DNA of 64,000 bases from the NCBI GenBank assembly GCA_024403615.1, contig JAKSRM010000008.1:273-64272 (forward strand). The letters run 5' to 3'. This document shows, piece after piece, positions 3-49,826 of the stretch. The first letter of the stretch is position 1, and the number at the start of each line of letters is the position of its first letter. The notes under the pieces were generated by a model, which was not told the DNA's origin, made no database searches, and saw only the letters and a program-made list of their open reading frames with translations. The DNA comes from Lachnospiraceae bacterium. GTDB lineage: Bacteria; Bacillota; Clostridia; Lachnospirales; Lachnospiraceae. The position numbers and the translations under genes are program-made.

Positions 3-1079
3 AAATACGAGCGTCCAAAATACCTTGATCCTAGCATCAAGACTTACTTCAGAAAGAGTGCATTCAGCAAAGCTGGTGGCTTTACCGTTCCAAATATTAC
101 TGACCGTCCGATTTCTATCCGAGAGAACTTCCGCCGTGCAATGATGCATGAGAATCCTGCATGGGTTCCAAACTCAACCACAGACTTTAACTTTGCAATG
201 CTTACGGTAGTTACCGGTATGCCAGAAGCTGACTGGACATGGACCGAGCGTACCGAATACAAAGACTGGTTCGGCGTTGAATGGATGTATGTTCCGGAAG
301 CTGGCGGCCCTATGTTAAAGCCAAACACCCAGTTCCTGGATGACATTACCGATTGGAAAGAAAAAGTTAAATTCCCGAACCTGGATGAATACGATATTGA
401 AGGTTGCTGCAAGAAATGGTTAGAGACCTGTGATCCAGAAAAAGTTTACCATGTAAATATTGGCCAAGGTTGCACCGAACGTTTAGTAGCTCTTCGTGGT
501 GGTTATACCGATGCTATGTGTGACATGGCTCTGGAACCAGAAGCAGTTCGTGAATTCTTAGAAGCTTTCGTCGATTGGGAAATTCAGCTGATTGATAAGC
601 TTTGCGAATATCTGCCATTAGAATATGTAACTTATCATGATGACTGGGGAACAGAAAGAGATTCCTTCTTCAGCGAAGCGATGATGGATGCTATGGTATA
701 TCCTCCAACAAAGAGACTCTTCGACCATATCCGTTCCAAAGGCGTTTTCATCGAGCTTCATAGCTGCGGATGCATCAAACGTTTCGTTCCTTATATGATC
801 GACCTTGGCGTAAGTATGATGCAGATTCAGGCTCGTGCGAATGATTTCAAAGCTTACAAAGCTCAGTACGGCGACAAGATTGGTATCGAAGTTGGTGTAA
901 TGCCTACTCCTGGTATGACAAAAGACGAAGCTGTTGCTCGCATTCATGAAATCGTTGATGACTTCTCTGCTGGCGGCGGAATGATTTCTTCCTTCATGAG
1001 CCCAGACCCAGAACTGCTTTGGGATGGCACCATGGAACTGTACTACTACAGCCGCGAGAAATACGAAGGCGAAGCTTAA
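3..1079 (+). CDS. URO-D/MtaA-family corrinoid methyltransferase-like protein, 5'-truncated by the window edge
   Basis: The frame is open from nt 3, with no stop before the ATG at 141. Residues encoded before 141 (..ISIRENFRRAMMHENPAWVP) align with the N-terminal 'KENY..RGE.PEWIP' segment of the neighbouring paralogues, so the true start lies upstream of the window. The C-terminal half has family-like 'DDWGTE', 'ELHSCGC' and 'SAGGGM' segments. Confidence 0.75.
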   Translation, partial: KYERPKYLDPSIKTYFRKSAFSKAGGFTVPNITDRPISIRENFRRAMMHENPAWVPNSTTDFNFAMLTVVTGMPEADWTWTERTEYKDWFGVEWMYVPEAGGPMLKPNTQFLDDITDWKEKVKFPNLDEYDIEGCCKKWLETCDPEKVYHVNIGQGCTERLVALRGGYTDAMCDMALEPEAVREFLEAFVDWEIQLIDKLCEYLPLEYVTYHDDWGTERDSFFSEAMMDAMVYPPTKRLFDHIRSKGVFIELHSCGCIKRFVPYMIDLGVSMMQIQARANDFKAYKAQYGDKIGIEVGVMPTPGMTKDEAVARIHEIVDDFSAGGGMISSFMSPDPELLWDGTMELYYYSREKYEGEA

Positions 1080-1113
1080 AACAATTACTTCTTATAAAGA
1101 AACTGTATAAAAC

Positions 1114-1148
1114 AAAAAGGCGCTTGGAAATCCAAGCGCCTCTTTATT
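1114..1148. terminator. Bidirectional rho-independent terminator between convergent genes
   Basis: Perfect 9-bp GC-rich stem ggcgcttgg / ccaagcgcc (1119-1127 / 1132-1140) with loop aaat. It is flanked by an A-run upstream and tctttatt downstream. Confidence 0.75.
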
Positions 1149-1164
1149 ATCGAATGATATGAAA

Positions 1165-2193
1165 TTATTTTTTGTAGAATTCGCGTGATACTTCATGCAT
1201 AACTTCGTTAACCATATCTCTCTTCCAGATAGCTTTCTGATCGTTCGGATCTGGAATGATGAAGGAAGCCATGAAGCAGAAACCGCCGCCTGGTGCGTAG
1301 GTATTCGCTACGTCCCAAACGATTTCCCGGATCTGCTCTTCGTTTAAGTCCGCCTGGAAGGTGGAAGAAGAGTTAATGCAGCCTGCCATTACGAACTTGC
1401 TACCATATTTTTCTTTAATAGCTACTAAGTCGTTGCAGTTCTGAGCTGGGTTCCATACGTTAACGCCAAGCACGTTAACCATATCGTCTACGAAGCATTC
1501 ACATTTACCACAGTTATGGAAGCTTACGAACATATCTCTGTCATGAGCGATGTCGGATAATCTCTTATAATGTGGAAGTAAGAATTTTTCGTACATTTCT
1601 ACAGAAATGAAAGGATTTCCCCATGCAGCAGTATCGTCTACTAAAGACATGATATCTGGCTGATAGTAATCGATCGAACGATTAACAACGTCTACGTAGA
1701 AATCGCTTAAGTACTGGAATAATTCTTCGCATTCTTCTGGTTCTTCATATAATGCGCAAAGACCTTCTGTGAAGCCCATGAATGCCATTAAATGCTGGAA
1801 GTAACCGGTTCCTGCTACACCATACTGTACAGCCTGTTTGGAACGGTCGATATTTGCTTTCTCTAAATCTTTCTTTGCTAACTGTTCGAAATCGATTTCG
1901 TCAAGATTTGGAGCTTTGATGACGTCACGCCATTTTGTGATGTCGTCAAGAATGAAGTCCCATGTCTTAGGAATCATAGCGCCACCAGCTTCTTTGCTGG
2001 TTACATGCTCAACGCCCCAGATGTCCTTATGATCGCCGTTTGGATCCATAGCTTTCATTAAGAAAGATGGTGATGCGCCAGCGGTTGCTCTTTCCCATTT
2101 GTAGGAAGGATCTGCTGCCATGTGTGGAATCCACTCAGGAACTTCGCCACGTAAACACATAAAATAGTTTTCTTTTTCTGTTAACTGTGCCAT
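1165..2193 (-). CDS. URO-D-family corrinoid methyltransferase, paralogue 1 of 6 (putative substrate:corrinoid MT-I)
   Basis: 342 aa. Full-length similarity to the other five paralogues, with shared motifs IPKTWDFILDDITKW, MAFMGFTEGLCAL, DDTAAWGNPF, HNCGKCE and APGGGF. SD AAGGAGAG lies upstream of the ATG. Confidence 0.85.
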   Translation of the reverse strand: MAQLTEKENYFMCLRGEVPEWIPHMAADPSYKWERATAGASPSFLMKAMDPNGDHKDIWGVEHVTSKEAGGAMIPKTWDFILDDITKWRDVIKAPNLDEIDFEQLAKKDLEKANIDRSKQAVQYGVAGTGYFQHLMAFMGFTEGLCALYEEPEECEELFQYLSDFYVDVVNRSIDYYQPDIMSLVDDTAAWGNPFISVEMYEKFLLPHYKRLSDIAHDRDMFVSFHNCGKCECFVDDMVNVLGVNVWNPAQNCNDLVAIKEKYGSKFVMAGCINSSSTFQADLNEEQIREIVWDVANTYAPGGGFCFMASFIIPDPNDQKAIWKRDMVNEVMHEVSREFYKK

Positions 2194-2216
2194 TGTTAAC
2201 TCTCCTTGTATTTTTA

Positions 2217-3242
2217 TTATTTTTTGTAGAATTCTTTACTGATTTCAAACATTACTTTGTTGATAGTATCTTTCTTCCACTGCATGTATTTGTCCGTCTT
2301 ATCGTCGATCAGTAAGAATACCTGGAAGAAGAAGCCGCCGCCTGGAGCATATTTGTTAGCTACATCCCAAAGAATGTCGCGAATCTTTTCTTCTGTTAAA
2401 TCGTCTGCTACGAAAGTTGAAGAACCATTGATACATCCGGAAAGAATCAGTCTGTTACCGAATTTTGCTTTGATACCAGCAAGGTCGTTGCAGTTCTGTG
2501 CAGGGTCCCATGCATTGATACCAACGGTGTTAACCATATCATCTAAGAAGATTTCGCATTTACCACAGTTGTGGTAAGTAATCGGAAGATCTCTTTCCTT
2601 AGCGTAATCGGTAAGTCTTGCGTAACGAGGTACGAAGAATTTCTGGAACATATTCAGGGATACGAAAGGATTTCCCCAAGCTGCTGTATCATCACCGATA
2701 GACATTACGTCTGGTTTGTATAAATCAATAGTTTTTTCAATAACCTGGCAGTAGAAATCTGTTAAGTAATCGAACAATGCTTCGCATTCTTCTGGTTCTT
2801 CCGAAAGAGCGCAAAGGCCTTCGGTGAATCCCATAAATGCCATTAAGTTCTGGAAGATTCCGCCGCCGCCAGCGCCATAGGTAACTGCCTGATTCTCGCG
2901 GTCTACTGGCATTCTTTCCATATCTTTTTTAGCCATCATTTCCCAGTCAATGCCTTCCAGTGATGGAGCTTTAATAACATCATGCCATTTTGTGATGTCG
3001 TCAAGAATGAAGTCCCATGTCTTAGGAATCATTCCACCTGCTGCTTCTTTGCTGGTAATGTACTCAACGCCCCAAATATCTCTGTGGTCGCCGTTTGGAT
3101 CCATAGCTCTCATCATAAAGGATGGTGATGCTCCACCAGTAGGTCCTTTGATTGCTGGGTCCATAGTAATAACTGGAATCCATTCTGGCTGTTCGCCTCT
3201 AATACAACGTAAATAGTTCTCTTTTTCTGTTAACTGTGCCAT
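2217..3242 (-). CDS. URO-D-family corrinoid methyltransferase, paralogue 2 of 6
   Basis: 341 aa with the same motif set as paralogue 1. Its stop is only 23 nt from the paralogue 1 start, so the two are probably co-transcribed. Confidence 0.85.
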   Translation of the reverse strand: MAQLTEKENYLRCIRGEQPEWIPVITMDPAIKGPTGGASPSFMMRAMDPNGDHRDIWGVEYITSKEAAGGMIPKTWDFILDDITKWHDVIKAPSLEGIDWEMMAKKDMERMPVDRENQAVTYGAGGGGIFQNLMAFMGFTEGLCALSEEPEECEALFDYLTDFYCQVIEKTIDLYKPDVMSIGDDTAAWGNPFVSLNMFQKFFVPRYARLTDYAKERDLPITYHNCGKCEIFLDDMVNTVGINAWDPAQNCNDLAGIKAKFGNRLILSGCINGSSTFVADDLTEEKIRDILWDVANKYAPGGGFFFQVFLLIDDKTDKYMQWKKDTINKVMFEISKEFYKK

Positions 3243-3320
3243 AGTTTTTCTCCCTTCCTAATTTTAGGTATGAAATATCTTTGTCCTATGGATAAAATGT
3301 TATCACATGGGCTATTAGAT

Positions 3321-3358
3321 GTAAATAAAAAAGGCCTCCGGGAATTCCCGAAGGCCTC
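3321..3358 (-). terminator. Rho-independent terminator downstream of paralogue 3
   Basis: On the minus strand: aggccttcggg-aatt-cccggaggcct (10 of 11 bp paired) followed by tttttatttac. Confidence 0.7.
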
Positions 3359-3380
3359 ATTTCATAAGATCTGATTCGAA

Positions 3381-4406
3381 TTATTTCTTGTAGAACTCGT
3401 GTCCGATTTCACGCATAGCTTTGTTAACAGTGTTCTTTCTCCAGATATCGAATTCGTTTGTTTCATCAGGAATGATGAAGTGGCTCTGGAAGAAGAATCC
3501 GCCGCCTGGAGCGTACTTATTAGCTACGTCCCAAAGAATGTCGTAAATCTTCTCTTCTGTTAAGTCTTTAACTTCGAATGTTGTAGAACCGTTGATACAT
3601 CCGGACATGATCAGGTTGTTGCCGAATTTCTTCTTCAGTGCTAACAGGTCATTGCAGTCCTGAGCTGGGTCCCAAACCTTAACACCAACAATATTAACCA
3701 TATCGTCCATGAAGCTTTCGCATTTACCGCAGTTATGATAAGTAACGAAAAGACCTCTGTCTTTTGCATACTGTGTAAATCTAGCATAACGTGGAACGAA
3801 GAACTGCTGGAACATTGGAAGAGAAACGAAAGGATTTCCCCATGCAGCTGTATCATCAACGAGCATGATTGCGTCTGGCTGATACAGATCAATGGTATGA
3901 TCCATGATCTCGCAGTAGAAGTCTGTGATGTAATCGAACAGTGCTTCGCACTCTTCTGGTTCATCAAATAATGCGCAAAGGCCTTCGGTAAATCCCATGA
4001 ATGCCATTAAAGCCTGGAATAATCCAGAACCGCCAGTAGCGTAAGTAACGATCTGGTTCTCACGGTCTGGTTTGAACATTTCAAGGTCTTTCTTTGCCAT
4101 CTGTTCCCAATCAATGCCTTCCAGTGATGGAGCTTTGATTACGTCATGCCATTTTGTGATGTCGTCAAGAATGAAGTCCCATGTCTTAGGAATCATTCCG
4201 CCAGCAGCTTCTTTGCTTGTGATGTATTCAACACCCCAAATGTCCTTGTGGTCTCCGCCTGGGAACATGTGTTTCATTAAGAAAGATGGAGATGCAGAAG
4301 TTGTAGGTCCTTTAATTGCACGATCCATCGTGATATGTGGAATCCATTCTGGCTGTTCGCCACGGACTGCCATCATATAATTTTCGCGTTCTGTTAACTG
4401 TGCCAT
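3381..4406 (-). CDS. URO-D-family corrinoid methyltransferase, paralogue 3 of 6
   Basis: 341 aa with the same motif set; closest by eye to paralogues 2 and 4. Confidence 0.85.
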   Translation of the reverse strand: MAQLTERENYMMAVRGEQPEWIPHITMDRAIKGPTTSASPSFLMKHMFPGGDHKDIWGVEYITSKEAAGGMIPKTWDFILDDITKWHDVIKAPSLEGIDWEQMAKKDLEMFKPDRENQIVTYATGGSGLFQALMAFMGFTEGLCALFDEPEECEALFDYITDFYCEIMDHTIDLYQPDAIMLVDDTAAWGNPFVSLPMFQQFFVPRYARFTQYAKDRGLFVTYHNCGKCESFMDDMVNIVGVKVWDPAQDCNDLLALKKKFGNNLIMSGCINGSTTFEVKDLTEEKIYDILWDVANKYAPGGGFFFQSHFIIPDETNEFDIWRKNTVNKAMREIGHEFYKK

Positions 4407-4421
4407 AGTTTTTTCTCCTAA

Positions 4422-5450
4422 TTAGTTCTTTTTGTAGAATTCTTTACTGATTTCATCCATAACGTTGAATACAGTATCTCTTCTCCAGATATCATATTTA
4501 TTTGTTTCATCAGGAATGATGAAGCTTGCCTGGAAGAAGAAGCCGCCGCCTGGAGCGTATTTGTTAGCTACATCCCAAAGGATGTCACGGATTCTGTCTT
4601 CTGTTAAGTCGTCAGCTACGAATGTAGAAGAACCGTTGATACATCCGGACATGATCAGTCTGTTGCCATATTTGTTCTTAAGTGCTAACAGGTCGTTGCA
4701 GTCCTGAGCTGGGTCCCATACAGTAATGCCAACTTTTTCAATCATATCTGGCATGAAGCTTTCGCATTTACCGCAGTTATGATAAGTAACGAAAAGACCT
4801 CTGTCTTTTGCAAACTGTGTAAATCTGCTGTAACGAGGAACGAAATATCTCTGGAACATTGGAAGAGATACGAAAGGATTTCCCCATGCAGCGGTATCGT
4901 CTGTTAACTGGATTGCATCTGGTTTGTAGTAATCAATGCAGTTTTCCATGATTGTGCAGTAGAAGTCTGTAAAGTAATCGAATAATGCTTCGCACTCTTC
5001 TGGTTCTTCGGATAATGCGCAAAGGCCTTCAGTGAATCCCATGAATGCCATCAATGCCTGGAAAATACCTGTGCCGCCAGTCATGTAAACAACAACTTTG
5101 TTCTCACGGTCAACCTTGAACATTTCAAGATCTTTCTTTGCCATCTGTTCCCAATCAATGCCTTCCAGTGATGGAGCTTTGATTACATCGTGCCATTTTG
5201 TGATGTCGTCTAATAAGAAGTCCCATGTCTTAGGAATCATAGCGCCGCCAGCTTCTGCACTGGTTACATATTCAACACCCCAAATGTCCTTGTTGTCTCC
5301 GCCAGGTCTCATCTGTCCCATTAAGAAGGATGGGGATGCCATGCAGGTAGGGCCCTTGCCGCTACGGTCCATACGGATTACTGGAATCCATTCTGGCTGC
5401 TCGCCGCGAACTGCCATTAAGTAGTTTTCACGTTCTGTTAACTGTGCCAT
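4422..5450 (-). CDS. URO-D-family corrinoid methyltransferase, paralogue 4 of 6
   Basis: 342 aa with the same motif set. It lies 15 nt upstream of paralogue 3, so the two probably form an operon. Confidence 0.85.
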   Translation of the reverse strand: MAQLTERENYLMAVRGEQPEWIPVIRMDRSGKGPTCMASPSFLMGQMRPGGDNKDIWGVEYVTSAEAGGAMIPKTWDFLLDDITKWHDVIKAPSLEGIDWEQMAKKDLEMFKVDRENKVVVYMTGGTGIFQALMAFMGFTEGLCALSEEPEECEALFDYFTDFYCTIMENCIDYYKPDAIQLTDDTAAWGNPFVSLPMFQRYFVPRYSRFTQFAKDRGLFVTYHNCGKCESFMPDMIEKVGITVWDPAQDCNDLLALKNKYGNRLIMSGCINGSSTFVADDLTEDRIRDILWDVANKYAPGGGFFFQASFIIPDETNKYDIWRRDTVFNVMDEISKEFYKKN

Positions 5451-5492
5451 TGTTATATCTCCTTATGATTATTTATTTTTATACGATGCCCG

Positions 5493-5518
5493 CAAGGCTG
5501 TCATAAAAGACAGCCTTG
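5493..5518 (-). terminator. Stem-loop between paralogues 5 and 4 (possible terminator or processing hairpin without a U-tract)
   Basis: Perfect 10-bp stem caaggctgtc / gacagccttg with a 6-nt loop. No T-run follows on the minus strand, so function is uncertain. Confidence 0.35.
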
Positions 5519-5536
5519 AAAATATCATATTAAGTA

Positions 5537-6553
5537 CTATTTGTAGAATTCGTGGCTGATTTCTTCCATAACTTTGTTTACAGTATCTCTCTTCCAGATA
5601 GCGTGCTGATCGGTAGGATCTGGAATGATGAAGTGACACTGGAATGCGAAACCGCCGCCTGGTGCATATTTATTAGCAACATCCCAGCAGATCTCACGGA
5701 TCTGGTCTTCTGTGATGTTAGGGTCTTCGAAAGTCTGGGAAGAGTTAATGCATCCGGTAAGAACTAACTTGTTACCGAATTTCTTCTTGATTGCTTCCAG
5801 GTCGTTGCAGTTCTGAGCTGGGTTCCAGCCGCTGATACCAACAACGTTTACCATGTCATCCATGAAGATTTCGCATTTTCCGCAGTTATGAAGAGTTACA
5901 GGGATGTCTCTGTCATGAGCATAGTCTGCCATTCTCTTATAACGAGGAATGAAATAGTGCTGCATCATCTCTAATGATACGAAAGGATTTCCCCATGCTG
6001 CTGTATCATCTGTGATTCCCATGATGTCTGGTTTGTAAAGGTCGATAGTTTTTTCGATAACTTCACAATAGAAATCGCATAAGTAATCAAACAGAGCGTC
6101 GCACTCTTCTGGTTCTTCATATAAAGCGCAAAGGCCTTCGGTGAAGCCCATGAATGCCATTAAGTGCTGGAAGTATCCAGTTCCGCCTACACCGTAGGAA
6201 CCAGCCTGGTTTACATAGTCACGATGAGCAAGGTCTTTCTTTGCCATCTGTTCCCAGTCAAATCCGCTGATATCAGGAGCTTTGATTACATCATGCCATT
6301 TTGTAATGTCGTCAAGCAGGAAGTCCCATGTTCTAGGAAGCATTCCGCCTGCTGCTTCTTCACTTGTGATGTACTGAACACCAAAGATGTCCTTGTGGTC
6401 TCCATCTGGATAATAATGTTTTCTTAACCATGATACGGAAGCGTTTCCTGAAGGTCCTTTTCTTGTAGCATCCATGCTAATATGTGGGATCCATTCTGGC
6501 TGCTCGCCTCTTAAAGCCATTAAATAATTTTCTCTTTCAGTTAACTGTGCCAT
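5537..6553 (-). CDS. URO-D-family corrinoid methyltransferase, paralogue 5 of 6
   Basis: 338 aa. Motifs LPRTWDFLLDDITKW, MAFMGFTEGLCAL, DDTAAWGNPF, HNCGKCE and APGGGF. Confidence 0.85.
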   Translation of the reverse strand: MAQLTERENYLMALRGEQPEWIPHISMDATRKGPSGNASVSWLRKHYYPDGDHKDIFGVQYITSEEAAGGMLPRTWDFLLDDITKWHDVIKAPDISGFDWEQMAKKDLAHRDYVNQAGSYGVGGTGYFQHLMAFMGFTEGLCALYEEPEECDALFDYLCDFYCEVIEKTIDLYKPDIMGITDDTAAWGNPFVSLEMMQHYFIPRYKRMADYAHDRDIPVTLHNCGKCEIFMDDMVNVVGISGWNPAQNCNDLEAIKKKFGNKLVLTGCINSSQTFEDPNITEDQIREICWDVANKYAPGGGFAFQCHFIIPDPTDQHAIWKRDTVNKVMEEISHEFYK

Positions 6554-6594
6554 AGATATTTCTCCTTACCTATTTATAATTTTGCTAGCGTGCT

Positions 6595-6603
6595 ATTTTA
6601 TCA
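6595..6603 (-). promoter_or_regulatory. Candidate extended -10 element (TGATAAAAT) for paralogue 5
   Basis: Minus-strand TGATAAAAT lies about 42 nt upstream of the ATG at 6553. The identical 12-mer atatgataaaat recurs upstream of paralogue 6. Confidence 0.3.
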
Positions 6604-6821
6604 TATTTTAGTCAAGATATGAAATGCCCTACTCTCACATTCATAATATATTACCAAAAGAATCGTCGTGAAGACATTTCTTTGGAAAAATCAACACGAT
6701 TCCCATTTTTGTTGACTCCCAAAGCCTTCTTTTTGTATTTAAAAGATACCGATTTAGTGAAATCCATCCGTTATAATAGATATGACATAATAAATAAGAA
6801 GTATTTTGATTGGAGAACGTA

Positions 6822-7637
6822 ATGATTATTATTGGGGAAAAAATCAACGGGGCGATTCCGTCTATTAAAGATGCCATCTTAAACAAGAATGAAGAATTAA
6901 TCAAAGAGCGCACCATCCTTCAGGATGAAGCCGGTGCACATTTCTTAGATTGCGCTCCAAGTACATCTACTGACATTGAATACGATACCATGGTTTGGCT
7001 GATCCAGTTAATGCAGGGCGTATCCGAAAAGCCTCTTTGCATCGATAGTCCGAATGCCTCCTTACTGGCCAGAATTTTAGAAGAAGGCTGGGTAAATAAA
7101 CCAGGTATGGTAAATTCCGTAAATGAAGAAAGCAACAAGTGTGAAATCATTTTCCCACTAATTGCCCATACGGATTGGAACGTGGTAGCTCTTACTTGTG
7201 ATGCCGATGGCATTCCAATGGAAGCATCCAAAAAAATCGATATTGCGAAACGAATGATTGATAAAGCAGTCAAGTACGGCGTGGATTTGAAAAATCTGCA
7301 CATTGATCCTTGCGTTATGGCCCTTGCTGCTATGGCAGATTCCATGAACAACTTCATCGAATGTATTGAAGGAATTCACGAATATGCACCAGAAGTAAAA
7401 GTAACCGGCGCCATCTCGAATATTTCCTTTGATATGCCAGCGAGAAAATATGTAAACAATACTTGTATTGCTCTTGCGATGAAGGCCGGATTAGATAGCG
7501 CGATTCTGGATCCTACCAACGTCGATATGATGAGTACCATTTATGCTTGCGAAGCATTAAAAGGAACCGATAAAAATGGAAGAAAATATAACCGGGCTTA
7601 CCGCCAGGGAAAACTTGGAATAACACCGAAAAAATAA
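6822..7637 (+). CDS. Pterin-binding methyltransferase (methyl-corrinoid:tetrahydrofolate methyltransferase, MT-II-like)
   Basis: The N-terminus 'MIIIGEKINGAI' is typical of MeTr/AcsE/MetH pterin-binding (DHPS-like) domains. I prefer the ATG at 6822 with a GGAG 6 nt upstream over the TTG at 6810 in the ORF track. Confidence 0.8.
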   Translation: MIIIGEKINGAIPSIKDAILNKNEELIKERTILQDEAGAHFLDCAPSTSTDIEYDTMVWLIQLMQGVSEKPLCIDSPNASLLARILEEGWVNKPGMVNSVNEESNKCEIIFPLIAHTDWNVVALTCDADGIPMEASKKIDIAKRMIDKAVKYGVDLKNLHIDPCVMALAAMADSMNNFIECIEGIHEYAPEVKVTGAISNISFDMPARKYVNNTCIALAMKAGLDSAILDPTNVDMMSTIYACEALKGTDKNGRKYNRAYRQGKLGITPKK

Positions 7638-7662
7638 AGTACTATGTATTGGAGGGATAATA

Positions 7663-8301
7663 ATGTTTGATTTTGAAGAACTGAAAAATGTAATGGCAGA
7701 TCTGGACGAAGACCGGATGAAAGAAATCTTAGACGATGTAATGCAAGACGGCGGAAGCGAAGCGAAGAAAGCTTTGGAAGCTTGCCAGCAAGGCATGGAC
7801 ATCGTTGGAAAACGTTTTGAAAGTGGCGAATATTTCGTAGGCGATTTAATTTACGCTGGTGAAATTATGACCGATGCTGTTGAAATCATGAAAGAGGCTT
7901 TAGCAGGAGAAGCTGGAGAAGGTGGAGAAAAGACAAAAATGATTCTTTGCACCGTAAAAGACGACCTTCATGATATCGGAAAAAATATCGTAAAAGCAAT
8001 GCTGGAAGCAAACGGCTTTGAAGTACTGGATCTGGGAATCGATGTTCCTGCAGAGAAGGTTGTTGAAACTGTTAAAGCAGAAAACATCAAAATCGTTGCT
8101 CTTTCCGGTGTTTTAACTCTTGCTTTGAATTCTATGAAAGATACCGTTGACGCTCTGAAAGCAGCTGGCTTAACCGATGTAAAGGTTATCGTTGGTGGAG
8201 CTCCTGTATCCGAAAATTCTATCGCAATTACTGGTGCCGATGAATGGGCTTATTCTCCTCAGAAGACCGTTGATACATGTAAGGCATGGGCTAACAAATA
8301 G
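7663..8301 (+). CDS. Corrinoid (B12-binding) protein
   Basis: 212 aa with an N-terminal helical cap plus a Rossmann B12 domain. It has the DxHxxG motif 'DLHDIG' and a downstream 'VIVGGAP'. SD GGAGGG lies upstream. Confidence 0.9.
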   Translation: MFDFEELKNVMADLDEDRMKEILDDVMQDGGSEAKKALEACQQGMDIVGKRFESGEYFVGDLIYAGEIMTDAVEIMKEALAGEAGEGGEKTKMILCTVKDDLHDIGKNIVKAMLEANGFEVLDLGIDVPAEKVVETVKAENIKIVALSGVLTLALNSMKDTVDALKAAGLTDVKVIVGGAPVSENSIAITGADEWAYSPQKTVDTCKAWANK

Positions 8302-8316
8302 CAGAAAGCAGGCATT

Positions 8317-9489
8317 ATGAATAAAAAAGAATTACAGAAAGAAAGAATTGCGTTGTTCCGTGATGCTGCAAATTTTAAACATGTAGACCGCATCCCTCAC
8401 TTAGGCTGCGTCGTTACATGGAAAATCTTAGATGCTGGCTACACTTTAAGTGAAGCCATGACCAACTTCGACGTACTGGAAAAAAGCGTTCGTTATTTCC
8501 TGGATAAATATCCGGTAGATGCTATGCTGGATATTGGTATCCGAAATCAGTTCAATGTAACAGAAGCTTTCGGAACTCCAGGTTACTACTATTACAATGA
8601 CGAAGTAGTCGGTATTCATGACCATGCATACTGCACCGTCGATACCTTAATGGATTTCTTAAACGATCCAGACAGATATACCTGGGAAAAAATTCTTCCG
8701 GAAAAATACGGAGAGGATTGGAAAAAGAAAGACCTGGCAACTTGGAAGAAAACTTTCAGCGAATATATGAAATATACAAAATTCGTATTGAAGATGGCTT
8801 CTGTTACCGGGAAAGAATATGGTCTGCCTAGTATGGCTCCAAACAATCCAATGAAAGGTTCCATCCAATTCGCTATTGAAGAATTAGAAGCAAACCTTTT
8901 AGGAATCAAGGGCTTATCTCTTGCTCTTCGGAGAAATGCCGATCAGTTGGAAACCTTTGTAAGAGGATGGGACGAACAGCATATTGATCCGATTATTGAA
9001 GAAATCAAAAAGTCCAATGGACCAAGCGAGAAATATTGCTTCGATGCCTCCATTATGATGTTGGCTCACAATCTGTTACGGCCAGAACAGTTTGAGCGGT
9101 TCTATTGGCCAAGCTTGAAAAAACTTTTAGATGCATACGCAGACAAGAAGATGAACGTTCGTATTTTCGCAGAAGGTTCTATCCTGCGTTACGCAGATTA
9201 CTTTAAGGATTATCCAAAGGGAGTTCTTACGTTCCATATCGAAAAAGATGATCCGTTCGAGTTCCGTCAGGCATTCCCGAATGCATGTATCATGGGTGGT
9301 ATGACCACCGACATGTTATATATGTCTTCTCCGGAAGAGTGTGTAGATTATACGAAGAAGCTTTGTGATGAACTTGGAAAAGATGGCGGTTTCATTTTCA
9401 GTGAAAACAAGATGCTGTCCTACAAGAATGATGCAAAGAGCGAGAACCTTCTTGCCGTTTGCGAATTCTTGAATTCCTACAAAATGTGA
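8317..9489 (+). CDS. Divergent URO-D-family methyltransferase-like protein (390 aa)
   Basis: Overall URO-D-like layout: 'ERIALFRDAANFKHVDRIPHL' at the N-terminus and 'KDGGFIFS' near the C-terminus. It is co-directional with, and 15 nt downstream of, the corrinoid protein. It lacks the HxCG segment present in the six paralogues. Confidence 0.65.
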   Translation: MNKKELQKERIALFRDAANFKHVDRIPHLGCVVTWKILDAGYTLSEAMTNFDVLEKSVRYFLDKYPVDAMLDIGIRNQFNVTEAFGTPGYYYYNDEVVGIHDHAYCTVDTLMDFLNDPDRYTWEKILPEKYGEDWKKKDLATWKKTFSEYMKYTKFVLKMASVTGKEYGLPSMAPNNPMKGSIQFAIEELEANLLGIKGLSLALRRNADQLETFVRGWDEQHIDPIIEEIKKSNGPSEKYCFDASIMMLAHNLLRPEQFERFYWPSLKKLLDAYADKKMNVRIFAEGSILRYADYFKDYPKGVLTFHIEKDDPFEFRQAFPNACIMGGMTTDMLYMSSPEECVDYTKKLCDELGKDGGFIFSENKMLSYKNDAKSENLLAVCEFLNSYKM

Positions 9490-9505
9490 TGAATAGGAGA
9501 ATATT

Positions 9506-9631
9506 ATGAATAAATACTTATCATATCCGGAAGGCTATAATAAACTGGTTCACGATATGTTACCGTTTTATTTAAGACCGGCCAAAAAAATGCTGATGCG
9601 GCTTTTACTGGTTATTTTACGAGATGGTTGA
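9506..9631 (+). CDS. Small ORF (41 aa), unannotated in the ORF track
   Basis: ATG at 9506 is preceded by AGGAG. It translates to MNKYLSYPEGYNKLVHDMLPFYLRPAKKMLMRLLLVILRDG. Its stop is 13 nt before the next gene's ATG, which has its own AGGAG. Confidence 0.35.
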   Translation: MNKYLSYPEGYNKLVHDMLPFYLRPAKKMLMRLLLVILRDG

Positions 9632-9644
9632 TTAGGAGAAAGAC

Positions 9645-10118
9645 ATGGAAGGATTTACTGTTGGATTAGCATTACTCGACTTTGTACCGGTAATTGCTTT
9701 CGGACTTGCAATGCTGTTTTTAGCATTAAAATTTAAAAGTGCATTGTTTATCATCGGCGCAATACTTGTTTTATTAGGTGGCGTGTTCAAAGCTTCCTGG
9801 AAACTGATTTTAGGAACCAGCAAAAAAGATGTGAAATGGATGAACAAAATGATGTGGCCTTGCATGGGCGTAGGTTTTGTTCTAATGATTGTTGGTGTAA
9901 TTGTAGGCCTGAAGAACATTAATTGGGCTGCAGTTGGAAGTGCCATTGTTAGCTTCCCGGCAATTATTTTCTTTATCATCTGGATTGTGGTTTTAGTTTT
10001 AATGACGGTATTTAAAAAGACAAAATTCCGTAAAGACAATGCAAAGGATAACTGGATTGCAGAAATCATGAACTCCATTGGAATGATCAGTCTCATGATT
10101 GCAATATTGGTTGCCTGA
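9645..10118 (+). CDS. Small integral membrane protein (about 5 TM), unknown function
   Basis: 157 aa, strongly hydrophobic with several predicted helices. I recognise no family. Confidence 0.6.
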   Translation: MEGFTVGLALLDFVPVIAFGLAMLFLALKFKSALFIIGAILVLLGGVFKASWKLILGTSKKDVKWMNKMMWPCMGVGFVLMIVGVIVGLKNINWAAVGSAIVSFPAIIFFIIWIVVLVLMTVFKKTKFRKDNAKDNWIAEIMNSIGMISLMIAILVA

Positions 10119-10140
10119 ATTCTTTAAAAAACAATATCCA

Positions 10141-10170
10141 AAAAGGCCTACGAAACGTAGGCCTTTTTAT
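10141..10170. terminator. Bidirectional rho-independent terminator
   Basis: aggcctacg-aaa-cgtaggcct perfect stem, flanked by aaaa upstream and tttttatt downstream. It sits between convergent genes. Confidence 0.75.
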
Positions 10171-10225
10171 TATGCGATGAAGGAATTTCATCGTGTTTTC
10201 TGAAATTAAGCTTTCGTAAAAACTT

Positions 10226-11257
10226 TTATTTCTGGTAGAAAGTTTCTGCACATTCTGCGATATATTTGTTTACCGTATCTCTCTTCCAGATAGCTTCTTG
10301 ATCGTTTGGATCTGGAATGATGAAAGTTACTAAGAATGCAAATCCGCCGCCTGGTGCATAGTTGTTTGCAACGTCCCAAACGATGTCATGAATCTGATCT
10401 TCTGTCAGGTCGCCCATGAAGGTCTGAGAAGAGTTGATGCAGCCGGTAAGAACCAGTTTGCTACCGAATTTCGCTTTGATTGCTGCTAAGTCGTTGCAGT
10501 TCTGAGCTGGGTTCCATCCGTTAACACCGATTTCATTTACCATATCGTCCATGAAGATTTCGCATTTTCCGCAATCATGGAAAGTAATAGGAATATTTCT
10601 TTCTTTTGCCAGAGAAGCCATTCTCTTGTAATGAGGCAAGAAGAATTCACGATACATATCCAGAGATACGAAAGGATTGCCCCATGCTGCATTATCATCG
10701 CCCATCTGCAGGATGTCTGGTTTGTAGTAATCGATGGTCTTTACTGCGATGTCATAATAAAAGTCACTTAAGTACTGAAGAAGTTCTTTACATTCTTCTG
10801 GCTCATCAAACAGAGCGCAAAGGCCTTCGGTAAATCCCATGAATGCCATCAGATCAAGGAAGAATCCGCTGTGGCAGCCATACTCTAATGCTGTCTCGTT
10901 GCGGTTGATTTTTGCCATTTCCAGATCTTTCTTTGCCATCATTTCCCAGTCAACACCGGAGAAATCTGGAGCTTTAATAACGTCTCTCCATTTTGTAACG
11001 TCGTCTAAAAGGAAGTCCCATGTTTTTGGAAGCATGCCGCCAGCTGCTTCTTTGCTGGTAACATATTCAACGCCCCAAATATCTTTGTGGTCGCCTTTTG
11101 GATCAAACTGTCCATTTAAAATAGACGGTGAAGCGCCTGCGCTTGGACGCATTCTTCCGCTATCGGAATTGTCTGCTAATACGATGTGTGGAATCCACTC
11201 TGGAACTTCGCCAGCCAGACATCTTAAATAGTTTTCTTTTTCTGTTAAACGTGCCAT
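10226..11257 (-). CDS. URO-D-family corrinoid methyltransferase, paralogue 6 of 6 (detached copy)
   Basis: 343 aa. Motifs LPKTWDFLLDDVTKW, MAFMGFTEGLCAL, DDNAAWGNPF, HDCGKCE and APGGGF. SD GGAGGTAGG lies upstream. Confidence 0.85.
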   Translation of the reverse strand: MARLTEKENYLRCLAGEVPEWIPHIVLADNSDSGRMRPSAGASPSILNGQFDPKGDHKDIWGVEYVTSKEAAGGMLPKTWDFLLDDVTKWRDVIKAPDFSGVDWEMMAKKDLEMAKINRNETALEYGCHSGFFLDLMAFMGFTEGLCALFDEPEECKELLQYLSDFYYDIAVKTIDYYKPDILQMGDDNAAWGNPFVSLDMYREFFLPHYKRMASLAKERNIPITFHDCGKCEIFMDDMVNEIGVNGWNPAQNCNDLAAIKAKFGSKLVLTGCINSSQTFMGDLTEDQIHDIVWDVANNYAPGGGFAFLVTFIIPDPNDQEAIWKRDTVNKYIAECAETFYQK

Positions 11258-19732: not shown

Positions 19733-19868
19733 TGTTTTCCTCCAAACTTTTTTATCATTATAGAAATTCGCAAAGGGTTTGTCATTATAAATTTGCTTTG
19801 TTCGAATCCCACCTTTGAACTTAAGCAAAACAAAAAACAAGGTCCACCAGACCTTGCTTTTGTTTTGA

Positions 19869-19956
19869 GCGGAGACGGTGGGATTCGAACCCACGTGCCG
19901 GGAACCCGGCAAACGCATTTCGAGTGCGCCCCGTTATGACCACTTCGATACGTCTC
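19869..19956 (-). tRNA. tRNA-Ser (anticodon CGA)
   Basis: 88 nt. Acceptor GGAGACG/CGTCTCC, anticodon stem GCGCA/TGCGT with loop CTCGAAA, long variable arm GCCGGG/CCCGGC, T-arm GTGGG-TTCGAAT-CCCAC and discriminator G. CCA is not encoded. Confidence 0.9.
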
Positions 19957-19966
19957 CATTGGTGCA

Positions 19967-19995
19967 TATTATAGTTGACGGTCTCTTGTTATGCA
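19967..19995 (-). promoter_or_regulatory. Sigma-70-type promoter for tRNA-Ser
   Basis: Minus strand reads TTGCAT, 17 nt, TATAAT. The -10 element ends about 10 nt upstream of the mature tRNA 5' end. Confidence 0.55.
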
Positions 19996-20040
19996 AGCGA
20001 GCTTTTGGTTTTTTCCTTTTATTTATAGTGTCAGTCTCTG

Positions 20041-20340
20041 CTTTCTGCAAAATCATTGAGATATGTACAGTTCCATTTCCGTCTCTTTGCAAGATAGTTG
20101 AGATATGTACGGCTCCATTTTCGTTTCTCTGCGAAATCATTGAGATATGTACGGCTTGATTGCTATTTTTACCAAAAAAATAGAGATATGTACTTGTAAA
20201 CAGACCCATATTTTTAAATATAGTCTGATTTCTTGTACATATCTCAACTATTTCGCTAAATCGTTTCCTATAGGTTGTACATATCTCGATTATTTCGCAA
20301 AATTACTCCCTATAGTCCGTACATATCTCAACTATTTTGT
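20041..20340. repeat. Phased array of seven ~24-bp repeats (core TTGAGATATGTAC): four direct, then three inverted, all at 42-bp spacing
   Basis: Plus-orientation cores are at 20056-68, 20098-110, 20140-52 and 20181-93 (the last reads tAgag). Inverted cores GTACATATCTCAA are at 20235-47, 20277-89 (reads ..tcGa) and 20319-31. The conserved 5' flank is GCRAAATNN. The centre of symmetry is at about 20214 (atattt-tt-aaatat). Confidence 0.9.
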
Positions 20341-20341
20341 T

Positions 20342-24644: not shown

Positions 24645-25805
24645 TTACAGATTATTAATGAAGTTCGCTAATCTGCTTAAAGCTTCTTTTAATTCGTTCA
24701 TAGAATATGCGTAGCTGATTCGTAAGAATCCTTCGCCACAGTCGCCGAAAGCGGTTCCCGGAACAACAGCTAATTTTTCCTGCTCCAGCAGCTTCGTTGC
24801 GAACTCGTCGCTGGTCATGCCCAGATGTTTAATGCTTGGGAACACATAGAAAGCGCCGTATGGTTCAAAGCATGGAAGGCCCATGTCTCGTAACGTCTTT
24901 ACCAGGAAACGTCTTCTTTGGTTATAGCTTTCTCGCATCTTTGCAATGTCATCATCGCCATTACGTAAGGCTTCAATGCCTGCGTACTGAGATGTGGTCG
25001 GAGCGCACATAATAGCGAACTGATGCAGCTTCGTAATCTGACCAATGATTTCTGCCGGTCCAGTTACGAAACCCAAACGCCAGCCAGTCATGGCATAGGC
25101 TTTGGAAAAACCATTAATAACCACGGTCCGCTCTCGCATGCCTTCCAGGGATGCAATGGTTACGTGAGGCTTTCCGGTATAGGTAAGCTCGCCATAGATT
25201 TCATCGCTGACAACAAAAATGTCCTTCTCCACGCAGATCTTTGCAATCTTTTCCAGGTCTTCTCTTTCCATAACAGCACCTGTCGGGTTGTTTGGGAAAG
25301 CTAAAATCAGGACTTTCGTCTTGTCGGTAATGGCATCTAACAGTTCTTCCGGAGTCAGACGGAATTCATTTTTCTCCTGCAGAGGAATGGTTACCGGAAC
25401 TGCTCCTGCCAGTCTTGCACAAGGCACATAGCTTACGTAGCAAGGCTCTGGAATAATGACTTCATCCCCTGGGTCACACATAGCTCGTAACGCCATATCG
25501 ATGGCTTCGCTACCACCAACGGTGATCAGAACTTCGCTTTTTGCATCATATGTTAAATTGTGTTTTCGAACGTAATAGTTGGAAACCTCCTGTCGTAATT
25601 CCATAAGGCCCGCATTGGAGGTATAAAAGGTGCGGCCTTTTTCCAGAGAATAAATACCAGCTTCTCTTACATGCCAAGGCGTATCAAAATCTGGTTCGCC
25701 AACGCCAAGGGAGATTGCATCGGGCATTTCTGCAACGACATCAAAGAATTTTCGAATTCCAGATGGCTGCATAGCTCTGGCTGTTTTGGATATAGGATCT
25801 CTCAA
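24645..25805 (-). CDS. Class I/II PLP-dependent aminotransferase (AlaT/AspC-like)
   Basis: 386 aa. The 'NPTGAV' and 'SKAYAMTGWRLG' (PLP lysine) motifs are present. It overlaps the upstream Lrp-type regulator by 4 nt, as in Bacillus alaR-alaT. Confidence 0.85.
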   Translation of the reverse strand: MRDPISKTARAMQPSGIRKFFDVVAEMPDAISLGVGEPDFDTPWHVREAGIYSLEKGRTFYTSNAGLMELRQEVSNYYVRKHNLTYDAKSEVLITVGGSEAIDMALRAMCDPGDEVIIPEPCYVSYVPCARLAGAVPVTIPLQEKNEFRLTPEELLDAITDKTKVLILAFPNNPTGAVMEREDLEKIAKICVEKDIFVVSDEIYGELTYTGKPHVTIASLEGMRERTVVINGFSKAYAMTGWRLGFVTGPAEIIGQITKLHQFAIMCAPTTSQYAGIEALRNGDDDIAKMRESYNQRRRFLVKTLRDMGLPCFEPYGAFYVFPSIKHLGMTSDEFATKLLEQEKLAVVPGTAFGDCGEGFLRISYAYSMNELKEALSRLANFINNL

Positions 25806-26284
25806 AATGACATCTTCTCTCTTTCATCTTTTTTCGGCTGCTCTAAAACTGCGCCGTAGTCTTTGTATCTCTTCATGATAAAGTGGGTAGCGGTTCCGCT
25901 TACGAATTCTACCGGGCTCAGCTTGCTGGATACGAAATTGGCAACCTGACGCATGGTCTTGCCCTCTAAGATAATCAGGAAGTCATAACGACCGGAAATC
26001 AGGTAGCAAGATTTTACTTCATCAAATTTATAGATACGTTCTGCGATGGCATCGAATCCCATTTCACGTCCCGTAGTAACATTTACTTCTATTAATGCGT
26101 CGACTTTTTCTTCGTCGGTGTTGTCCCAGTTAATCAGCGTGTAGTAGCCGCAGATGGTTCCGTCCTGCTCCAGATCCTGGAGCATGTTGGCGACAGCCGC
26201 TTCCTCGGCGCCTAACATTACGGATAACTCCTTCAGGTCGATTCTTGCGTTGTTCTGAATTAATCTTAATAATTCTTCTTTCAT
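25802..26284 (-). CDS. Lrp/AsnC family transcriptional regulator
   Basis: N-terminal wHTH 'LLRLIQNNARIDLKELS' plus a C-terminal RAM-like domain. Start chosen at MKEELL (ATG 26284, SD AAGGAGA). Confidence 0.8.
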   Translation of the reverse strand: MKEELLRLIQNNARIDLKELSVMLGAEEAAVANMLQDLEQDGTICGYYTLINWDNTDEEKVDALIEVNVTTGREMGFDAIAERIYKFDEVKSCYLISGRYDFLIILEGKTMRQVANFVSSKLSPVEFVSGTATHFIMKRYKDYGAVLEQPKKDEREKMSF

Positions 26285-26333
26285 CACTGTCTCCTTTTCT
26301 TTATTTAAAGCCTTTCGGCTGATACTCAAATTT

Positions 26334-45607: not shown

Positions 45608-46417
45608 ATGTTTGAATTTTTACAAAATGAAGTAACTTTTTATCTGTTATGTGGCCTTCTGGGTCTGGCTGCATCCATCATCGTTGTATGCATTCTGATC
45701 CGGAACCGCAACGTTACCAAATCACGCTTCATTGCGCTTTACATTTGCGCTGCAGCGGGTTTATTTGTTGGCGGCCATTTCTTCTTTTTCCTGGTGGGTC
45801 TTCCAGATTACATCCGAGACGTTGTTCCTACGCTAAAAAGTTTCTATGATTTTGTAATTTCCTTAGGCATGGCCTCTTCCGGTATGGTGTTCTACGGCGG
45901 ACTTTTGTTTGGTCTCTTGTTTATGTATATCTACTGCAGACGTGTAAAACTTCCTGTCCGTCATTATTTCAACATTATGGTTGTAACCTGCCCTCTGTTC
46001 CATTGCTTCGGCCGTATCGGCTGCGCCCTTTCCGGCTGCTGTTACGGAATCGAATATCATGGACCATTGGCCATTCTCTACAACGAATCTTTCGTTACTC
46101 CTGGCGTAAACGAAGACTTAGTAGACTTTCCTCGTTTTCCGGTCCAGCTGTTAGAGGCTCTGTTAGAGCTGATTCTTTTCATCGTTCTTTTACTTATTTA
46201 CTTAAAAAAAGAAGATGCGTTCTCTGTTACAGCAACGTATCTTCTCGTTTATCCTATTATTCGGTTCTTTGATGAATTCTTACGTGGCGACGTTCAAAGG
46301 GGAATCTGGGGTCCGTTCTCTACTTCCCAATGGGTCAGCCTCGTAATATTTATCATTACGCTAATATATCTGATAGTTCAGCGAAATCGCTCAAAGAAAG
46401 CGCTTCGCCACGAATAG
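45608..46417 (+). CDS. lgt: Prolipoprotein diacylglyceryl transferase
   Basis: 269-aa polytopic protein with the 'FGRIGCALSGCCYG' Lgt signature. There is no SD, and the start sits directly after a terminator, so the start is uncertain. Confidence 0.75.
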   Translation: MFEFLQNEVTFYLLCGLLGLAASIIVVCILIRNRNVTKSRFIALYICAAAGLFVGGHFFFFLVGLPDYIRDVVPTLKSFYDFVISLGMASSGMVFYGGLLFGLLFMYIYCRRVKLPVRHYFNIMVVTCPLFHCFGRIGCALSGCCYGIEYHGPLAILYNESFVTPGVNEDLVDFPRFPVQLLEALLELILFIVLLLIYLKKEDAFSVTATYLLVYPIIRFFDEFLRGDVQRGIWGPFSTSQWVSLVIFIITLIYLIVQRNRSKKALRHE

Positions 46418-47225
46418 TTTCGCTTTTTCCCATTTTTACAAGAGCTTCTGCCACCTGTTCTTTAGACCAGTTTAAATTTTGCGCATTTCCCAAGGCGTTT
46501 ACTAACGTTTTTCTTCTCTGGTTGAAGGCCGCACGGATAATGTCAAACATCTTTCCTTCATCCTTTGCCTTTACAGGACGCTCTTCTTCTTTGAAAATAT
46601 CCAGCTTAATTACTGCAGAATCTACATCCGGTTTCGGAATGAAGCAGTTTTTGGAAACGATCATAACTACTTCCGGACGGGAATAAAACTGAACCGCCAG
46701 GCTTAAAGCACCATAGGCCTTACTTCCCGGACCTTCCTGCATCCTTACCGCCACTTCCTTCTGAATCATAACCGTAATGCTGTCGATTTCATGCTGCTTT
46801 TCCAAAAGTTCCATAACAATTGGCGTAGTAATGTAGTACGGAAGGTTGGCAACCACCTTTACTTTCGCTCCACTACCACCACTAACAGAAGCAATCAGTT
46901 CTCCAATATCCACCTTCAGAATATCATCGTTAATCAGCGTGAAATTCTCGTAGTCCTTAAAGTTTTCCTTAAGAATCGGAATCAGCATTTTATCTACCTC
47001 TACGGCGATTACATGCTTCGCTGCCTGAAGCAAATATTCCGTAAGTGCTCCTAAACCAGGACCGATTTCCAGAACAATATCGTCCTCGGTAATTCCAGCT
47101 GCGCTGACAATAGAAGAAAGAACGTTGGCATCAATCAGGAAGTTCTGTCCATATTTCTTCTGGATCGAAAAATCATGGCTTTTGATCAGTTCTAAAGTTT
47201 TATTCGGGTTTCCTAAATTTTCCAT
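46356..47225 (-). CDS. rsmA: 16S rRNA (adenine1518/1519-N6)-dimethyltransferase
   Basis: 'KKYGQNFLID' and SAM motif 'VLEIGPGLGALT'. The 3' end overlaps the lgt 3' end by 62 nt. Confidence 0.92.
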   Translation of the reverse strand: MENLGNPNKTLELIKSHDFSIQKKYGQNFLIDANVLSSIVSAAGITEDDIVLEIGPGLGALTEYLLQAAKHVIAVEVDKMLIPILKENFKDYENFTLINDDILKVDIGELIASVSGGSGAKVKVVANLPYYITTPIVMELLEKQHEIDSITVMIQKEVAVRMQEGPGSKAYGALSLAVQFYSRPEVVMIVSKNCFIPKPDVDSAVIKLDIFKEEERPVKAKDEGKMFDIIRAAFNQRRKTLVNALGNAQNLNWSKEQVAEALVKMGKSETIRGEALSLSDFAELSDILA

Positions 47226-47241
47226 TTATTTTCCTGCTCTT

Positions 47242-49634: not shown

Positions 49635-49826
49635 AATATCCTTCTTTCTATGCCGACAGATGGGCCGGCATCTTTTATTTTTGCTATGGTCTTCTGCCAT
49701 TTGCAAATTCGTTTTATTAACTTGAGTATTTTAACATACTTTTTCTCTGTGTTGTACCTAAAATATTGAATTTTTACCTTATTCATTATAAAATTAGGAT
49801 TCAGTGAGTTAGGGGATTTACCGGCG

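Follow-up and report, generated by a model that had tools for sequence, protein, structure and literature searches.

Within a 64,000-nucleotide stretch of a Lachnospiraceae metagenome-assembled genome (MAG; contig JAKSRM010000008.1, the whole stretch being referred to below as the window), we identified an array of four direct and three inverted copies of a ~25-bp site, which is a member of a small, previously undescribed non-coding family of ~250-350 bp per element and of unusually regular geometry. On the sequences scanned, this family is restricted to uncultured gut Lachnospiraceae of a single genus-level clade, and we tentatively regard the array as a non-autonomous, gene-less, foldback-like dispersed element built from putative binding sites of the transposase or recombinase type. 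The array spans window positions 20044-20341, and all seven units, which share the invariant core GAGATATGTAC, point to a 41-bp AT-rich palindromic centre:

20046..20068, plus strand: unit 1, left arm, TGCAAAATCATTGAGATATGTAC
20088..20110, plus strand: unit 2, left arm, TGCAAGATAGTTGAGATATGTAC
20130..20152, plus strand: unit 3, left arm, TGCGAAATCATTGAGATATGTAC
20171..20193, plus strand: unit 4, innermost of the left arm, ACCAAAAAAATAGAGATATGTAC
20194..20234, no strand: 41-bp centre, an imperfect palindrome, TAAACAGAC-CCATATTTTTAAATATA-GTCTGATTT
20235..20257, minus strand: unit 5, innermost of the right arm, minus-strand reading AGCGAAATAGTTGAGATATGTAC
20277..20299, minus strand: unit 6, right arm, TGCGAAATAATCGAGATATGTAC
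20319..20341, minus strand: unit 7, outermost of the right arm, AACAAAATAGTTGAGATATGTAC, abutting the flavoprotein stop codon

Left-arm cores end at 20068, 20110 and 20152 (TTGAGATATGTAC) and at 20193 (TAGAGATATGTAC), and the reverse-complement cores of the right arm begin at 20235, 20277 (a TCGAG variant) and 20319. This arrangement of four direct and three inverted copies had been proposed in a first-pass annotation of the window, and was confirmed through reading of the sequence, a repeat finder and Tandem Repeats Finder, the last of which independently assigned a period of 42 to both arms. Repeat positions gave the phasing that had been described, with start-to-start distances of 42, 42 and 41 bp in the left arm and of 42 and 42 bp in the right. 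The same annotation had reported spacers alike within an arm and unlike between arms, and comparison of the repeats agreed; spacers measure 17-19 bp, and those of the two arms are not complementary. Also recovered was the small palindrome atattt-tt-aaatat, located at 20208-20221 within a larger imperfect palindrome, CAGAC..GTCTG (~20198-20230). Unit 4 retains an intact core, its flank being replaced by an A7 run (CCAAAAAAATAG) that forms a U-tract on the opposite strand. Matches to a 13-mer with at most two mismatches numbered nine in the window versus 1.4 expected, seven of them within the array, and none of 100 shuffled windows reached nine; a unit profile search of the window returned no site outside the array. 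Gene callers place no open reading frame (ORF) in the array, and the frames that can be drawn across it merely translate the repeat, as had been noted, because 42 bp correspond to 14 codons; none matched a Pfam family. Assembly artefact could be excluded, since the 4+3 array recurs in an independent Logan assembly (SRR19135262; L037), from which it differs by two substitutions over 316 bp (99% identity), the GTAC of unit 6 reading GTTC there.

To establish the extent of the family, 185,579 species-representative genomes were scanned with a strict pattern of two cores 40-44 bp apart. Three loci of window-like architecture were identified, in two Lachnospiraceae MAGs, so that the motif is not unique to the window:

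L002, JAZRXA MAG: array of 4+4 units, downstream of tuf
L003, JAZUGA MAG: array of 3+3 units, between two esterase genes
L004, JAZUGA MAG: array of 4+5 units, between convergent genes

In each of the three, the arms are convergent, a 42-bp phase is kept within each arm, and all GTAC ends are directed toward a short centre. The shared site is asymmetric and ~25 bp long, comprising YTGCR, an A-tract, ~4 variable bases, the invariant GAGATATGTAC and RG (unit consensus YTGCR-A-tract-NN-YGAGATATGTAC-RG), and the outer units of L002 and L004 fade without a sharp end. Including the window, the family thus comprises four loci in three genomes, with one to two copies detected per genome. Genomic contexts of the three additional arrays are unrelated and intergenic, and none of the three is near a tRNA gene; the association with tRNA-Ser that had been suggested for the window array is therefore coincidental. 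The three array-bearing genomes are, judging from shared protein clusters, close relatives: the 90% protein cluster of the window flavoprotein includes a JAZRXA contig, and a protein from the MAG that encodes the window flavoprotein clusters with the L003 carboxylesterase (MCQ2530085, MCQ2530560). Both links connect the window MAG with the JAZRXA and JAZUGA MAGs in one clade.

Several other candidates were examined and set aside. L001 (7560-7770) and L005 (3876-3996), from the Treponema MAG JAIRYV01, consist of 22/44-bp palindromic units, alternating 22-bp GTAC-centred near-palindromes GAGATATGTACATCTC and AGAGTTGTACGACTCT, and have only an 11-mer in common with the family. Their tandem arrays run into contig ends, implying that they are multi-copy or long, and one Treponema variant resembles the L003 core variant GAGTTGTGTAC, a link that is probably due to chance. 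L006 (1970-2095), between a thioesterase gene and a Fic gene of an unclassified bacterium, likewise shares only the 11-mer, around which its three direct 42-bp units carry an internal palindrome, GGGTACAT..ATGTACCC; it may be remotely related to the family. A metagenome scan with the two-core pattern, for which ~20 matches would be expected by chance on a rough estimate, yielded 17 loci, all unrelated tandem repeats (period 20-22 or 40-44 bp) and several apparently eukaryotic. No match was obtained when further arrays were sought through their spurious ORFs (a 1412-aa concatenated query). When the array and a piece of two units were compared by BLAST with 72,556 plasmids (PLSDB) and 50,697 phages (INPHARED), nothing was returned, or matches at E >=2, and array and convergent patterns had no match in IMG/VR, where a single-site scan found 12 single matches, approximately the chance number by rough estimate. 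In the searchable literature, the core sequence recovered only unrelated primers.

Comparison of the window locus with its relatives revealed that the array arrived there recently. The features involved are:

20026..20341, no strand: segment present in the window and L037 and absent from L036, delimited through BLAST and reading and through alignment of L037
20342..21283, minus strand: FMN_red/flavodoxin-family flavoprotein gene, whose transcript would enter the array
19968..19996, minus strand: putative tRNA-Ser promoter, TTGCAT-17-TATAAT, assigned by eye and outside the inserted segment
19869..19957, minus strand: tRNA-Ser(CGA), a neighbour outside the element
20173..20245, minus strand: terminator-like structure on the flavoprotein-sense strand, of putative function

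The tRNA-Ser locus had been put forward for comparison in close relatives, and the array is absent from both the conspecific locus L036 and L050, of a sister species (JAZRXA). L036 carries a flavoprotein gene 97% identical in nucleotides to that of the window. In L036, 78 bp containing a canonical intrinsic terminator separate the stop codon of this gene from the tRNA-Ser promoter, as against 316 bp in the window; window 19869-20025 aligns to L036 at 99.4% identity, identity resuming at 20025. L050 possesses the flavoprotein gene, a terminator and tRNA-Ser, its flavoprotein gene encoding the same protein as a gene ~80% identical in nucleotides to that of the window. At the L003-equivalent locus, L056 has an unrelated 155-nt spacer and no array. 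Since L036, L050 and L056 lack the array, array gain and loss take place on time scales ranging from within a species to within a genus. Flavoprotein homologues at greater distance (82-86% amino acid identity) show other synteny and no array, and the other members of the flavoprotein 90% cluster lie in paralogous contexts, also with no array. Other short repeats were encountered in the course of these comparisons: a different direct repeat of ~24-bp period (GTATTACGCGGTATT..) at 5020-5085 of L039, where it follows a flavoprotein homologue of 83% identity; a hairpin element, ACTAAAATTTCCCA..TGGGAAGTTTTAGT, in L056 (~4075-4165) where L003 has its array; and a 15-bp terminal inverted repeat, ATAAGGTTCAAACGG..CCGTTTGAACCTTAT, in L002 (2254-2349) between the tuf terminator and the array.

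Constraint within the arrays is concentrated in the cores. Between adjacent units of an arm, differences affect 14% of core, 31% of flank and 45% of spacer positions; the contrast between core (33/242 positions differing) and spacer (167/374) is highly significant (Fisher P = 2e-16), in a test that is partly circular given that the core was defined by its conservation. Cores are also identical between loci whose spacers hardly align. The elements possess a polarity: the window centre resembles the reverse complement of the L002 centre (about 28/41 identical, aligned by eye), and the left-arm spacers of the window resemble those of the L002 right arm, and the right those of the L002 left (17/30 each, P = 0.002), with same-side pairs not alike. 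As centre and arm-specific spacers are shared with L002 in opposite orientation, the element has been copied as a unit. Across the centres of the four arrays, the GTAC-to-GTAC distances are 42, 42, 31 and 21 bp, or ~4, 4, 3 and 2 turns of 10.5 bp, such that arm distances change only by approximately whole turns; for four loci this between-arm phase is suggestive, at roughly P = 0.02-0.04 on a rough estimate. Both the earlier impression of phased protein-binding sites and its extension across the inversion point thus gained support, 42 bp recurring in every arm of the three further arrays and cores being far better conserved than spacers. Together with an RNA fold that shows no sign of selection (see below), the core constraint, polarity and phase point to a protein that recognises a specific sequence in double-stranded DNA and would occupy several array sites along a single helical face.

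The ends of Tn7, Tn5090, Tn5053 and Tn552 are characterised by arrays of ~20-bp sites that share one orientation within each end and are inverted from one end to the other (PMC8649781). The window array, with its 4 + 3 sites of ~25 bp, shows this arrangement, and resembles Tn7-, Tn5053/Tn402-, Tn552-, Mu- and IS21-type ends in having several ~20-25-bp asymmetric sites, direct per arm and inverted between unlike arms, in an intergenic setting. Unlike such ends, it has no transposition genes between or near the arms, it is evenly spaced at 42 bp with a variable number of units, and its spacers within an arm are tandem duplicates of one another. On our preferred, tentative reading, each element would consist of two unlike arms, A and B, of 3-5 tandem 42-bp units each, pointing to a short centre and bound by one sequence-specific protein acting in trans. 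This protein would most probably be a transposase or recombinase requiring several sites per end, following the logic of Mu, Tn7, Tn5053, Tn552 and IS21, and the placement of the sites on one face could allow both arms to be gathered in a single nucleoprotein complex. Arms may lengthen or shorten as 42-bp units slip or are exchanged unequally. At the window locus, the element would have displaced the intrinsic terminator of the flavoprotein gene, just upstream of the tRNA-Ser promoter, and its innermost hairpin with U7 may now substitute for it. The first-pass annotation had proposed either a MITE-like, cargo-less relic of a pair of multi-site ends or an end-to-end junction; the former is favoured by the site layout, the absence from relatives and the occurrence at other loci, and the latter is unlikely, as sites oriented like the TnsB sites of Tn7 would put the termini at the outer borders.

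A number of observations weigh against a mobile element. No cognate transposase or recombinase was found in the window, and copy number is low, with one to two copies detected per genome and three loci recovered by the strict two-core pattern among all genomes scanned. Cores that remain intact after local duplication are what a host site with a function, and not a dead MITE, would be expected to show, and with only four independent arrays the statistics of phase are thin. Relative to L036, the 78 bp were replaced and not merely interrupted, with no duplication at the borders. The whole intergenic stretch differs in each comparison of a filled with an empty locus (L036, L050, L056), and hence terminal TG/CA, sharp termini and a target-site duplication are not readable at the array borders; such whole-stretch replacements could also come from ordinary recombination between strains.

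The main rival to a mobile element is a host nucleoprotein site, in which the array would offer phased docking sites to a clade-specific DNA-binding protein of the chromosome, one able to oligomerise or to wrap DNA (partition-, condensation- or Lrp-like), and the array would be maintained by selection at a few places in each chromosome. We consider this rather unlikely, even though it would account for cores that stay intact while spacers drift in each array, for the exact 42-bp period with arm distances shifting by about whole turns, and for the low copy number. The position of the arrays may also be consistent with such a role: metG-tatD-ksgA, at window 46356-49706, is a gene order typical of origin-proximal DNA in Firmicutes, as is the neighbourhood of tuf, after which L002 lies, and GC skew is negative over nearly the whole window, where the minus strand encodes most genes; this places the window on a single replichore, perhaps close to oriC. 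A parallel is provided by sopC of the F plasmid, composed of 12 direct 43-bp repeats with one SopB site each (PMC3177203), which shows that units of about four turns with a single site can serve as a centromere. Conversely, the array has no fixed position even within the species (L036) or in the sister species (L050), its sites are asymmetric and its arms unlike, the element is polar and found in either orientation, and neither a partner gene nearby nor, in the window, a parS site was identified. A degenerate mini Tn7-like element, in which left and right arrays of TnsB sites have fused with loss of cargo, would explain sites that are direct within each arm and inverted between arms. Homing next to a tRNA gene, which the tRNA-Ser neighbour would fit, is a feature of many Tn7-like elements, and the outer half-site resembles the TnsB site of real Tn7 ends in the same polarity, ACAAAATAGTTG being common to unit 7. 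This likeness (P = 0.017 versus column shuffles) was chosen post hoc, is weak and is limited to the outer half, the inner half-site being different. A search for 5'-TGT..ACA-3' termini with a 5-bp duplication found no ACA at the right border, no duplication, and a left TGT lying 17 bp outside unit 1. Given also that unit number varies from 3 to 5, that even 42-bp spacing is unlike Tn7 ends, that other copies are away from tRNA genes and that the window holds no tnsABC, this origin appears improbable; the array is not filed as Tn7-like and works like Tn7-type ends at best.

At the level of RNA, the array could instead act as the 3' untranslated region of the flavoprotein transcript, its long interrupted hairpin serving as a terminator, a stabiliser or an RNase III substrate. 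The array does fold strongly on either strand (about -100 kcal/mol; z = -9 and -12), and its symmetry of A-tract, stem and T-tract recalls bidirectional terminators. In particular, an 11-bp stem formed by the cores of units 5 and 4, together with the inner stem of the central palindrome (-24.2 kcal/mol, z = -5.2), is followed on the flavoprotein-sense strand by UAUUUUUUU (U7), exactly at the position of the intrinsic terminator of relatives, and this central hairpin probably now ends the flavoprotein transcript. However, a strong fold follows trivially from inverted repeats, the spacers of the arms are not complementary, and pairing is not maintained: the arms of L003 hold different cores (GAGATATGTAC versus GAGTTGTGTAC), and flank differences are uncompensated; sequence, and not pairing, is what the arrays conserve. 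Nor is terminator use general to the family, as separate canonical terminators adjoin the L003 and L004 arrays and the tuf terminator lies upstream of L002. Searches of Rfam 15 gave only chance miRNA-like matches to the window array, arising from the hairpin and far below the gathering threshold, and no matches for L002-L004 and L037. We accordingly judge an RNA element to be quite improbable as an account of the family. Least credible of all is a replication origin or partition site of plasmid or phage ancestry that survives as a relic in the chromosome, with iterons flanking an AT-rich centre. R1 parC and pBtoxis tubC are made up of two blocks of iterons, and the ~23-25-bp sites in two blocks round an AT-rich palindrome are reminiscent of these and of iteron origins. 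The four loci have housekeeping neighbours and lack Rep and Par genes, one MAG contains two copies, plasmid, phage and IMG/VR searches were negative, and the 42-bp period is twice that usual for iterons. An iteron origin thus fits in its AT-rich centre alone, and a partition centromere, to which the array had earlier been likened, is further disfavoured by the lack of positional conservation. sopC, parC and tubC differ from the array in lying beside par genes on plasmids and in having palindromic or contiguous sites with all units direct; the array has opposed arms in a chromosomal setting.

Among described repeats, BOX and SPRITE of pneumococcus appear nearest to the array in behaviour. BOX (A-Bn-C) is a MITE-like modular repeat with a tandem ~45-bp inner module in variable number, and SPRITE, rarer than BOX, is terminator-like, is enriched downstream of genes and may act as a terminator (PMC3049150). 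Like them, the array is small, non-coding, intergenic, downstream of a gene and modular, and would form hairpins if transcribed. BOX modules, unlike the array units, run one way between distinct A and C ends carrying terminal inverted repeats, and the array differs from both in its two opposed arms facing a centre, its low copy number and its invariant 25-bp site. BOX occurs in more than 100 copies per genome. In the construction of its arms, the array seems closest to the eukaryotic Foldback (FB) elements, which have long inverted arms of tandem sub-repeats in variable number with a short or absent middle, are of kilobase scale and are mobilised by MULE-type transposases. In contrast to those of FB, the arms of the array show complementarity within the site only. 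A literature search brought up no bacterial counterpart, and none is known to us. The array also resembles MITEs in being small (~300 bp), without a real ORF, built of inverted repeats and dispersed over its four loci. REP/BIME and REPIN sequences form strain-variable intergenic clusters whose inverted pairs yield hairpins; REPs, unlike the array, are ~35-bp palindromes of alternating orientation present in hundreds of copies with a RAYT gene. With units that are asymmetric and oriented block-wise, and one array copy in 64 kb, the array is not a REP/BIME. Further classes rejected were a CRISPR array (two orientations, mutually similar 17-19-bp spacers, no cas genes in the window), a replication fork trap (no switch of GC skew at the array, two arrays in one genome) and a promoter in the array centre (weak match TAAACA-16-TATAGT, not conserved in L002).

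The genes surrounding the array are of housekeeping type. Scanning of 65 of the 67 non-overlapping ORFs of at least 90 aa in the window identified no transposase, Par, Rep or tnsABC gene, consistent with the earlier report of neither a transposase nor a partition gene; those scanned include Rnf, V-ATPase, MetRS, a methyltransferase cluster, one Lrp/AsnC and one PucR regulator. The Lrp/AsnC-family regulator gene (25802-26329) lies 5.5 kb from the array. Sites separated by about four turns are bound by some Lrp-like proteins, but any link to the array would be conjectural, and the gene has an aminotransferase gene as its neighbour, an arrangement usual for local regulators. In correction of the earlier description, the array is placed 5' of the tRNA-Ser gene, on its promoter side, with the putative tRNA promoter between the two. 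This promoter, on the minus strand, has TATAAT at 19968-19973 and TTGCAT 17 bp upstream; it was not called in a promoter scan, and its -35 matches at 3/6 positions. On the other side of the gene, the DNA 3' of tRNA-Ser(CGA) differs in every relative (window 19833-19869; L036 2160-2531; L050 3620-4680), comprising a terminator and an aldo/keto reductase in the window, an unrelated gene in L036, and IS3-like HTH_Tnp_1 ORFs immediately after the tRNA in JAZRXA. This region looks like a tRNA-linked insertion hotspot independent of the array. At the far end of the window, 141-11257 holds ~7 ORFs of similar size (312-390 aa), five of them Pfam-confirmed as URO-D-like (MtaA-type), accompanied by genes for proteins that bind corrinoid (B12; 7663-8301) and pterin (6810-7637), and looks like an expanded methyltransferase/O-demethylase cluster.

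More broadly, the arrays may represent the cis-part of an undescribed Lachnospiraceae system, a somewhat doubtful proposal that takes in two versions. One is a family of prokaryotic transposons of foldback type, mobilised by a transposase or recombinase that uses multiple sites; the other is a clade-specific chromosomal nucleoprotein element, in which a protein oligomer would bridge two phased, opposed site arrays across an AT-rich centre. In the latter version, roles could include DNA melting, pairing or looping, or service as a decoy or transposon immunity site. Being based on four arrays, the claim made here is a lead rather than a result. If the sites are those of a transposase or recombinase, the arrays would constitute a bacterial counterpart of foldback elements and a compact, natural, two-end, cargo-free substrate through which a new transposition system might be discovered in abundant gut Firmicutes. 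Should they be bound by a host protein, they would represent a novel type of chromosomal cis-element whose rules of helical phase are unusually clean. Either way, the window locus suggests how a selfish or structural repeat can displace a terminator while supplying a substitute hairpin, and the array provides a strain-level marker in an uncultured clade.

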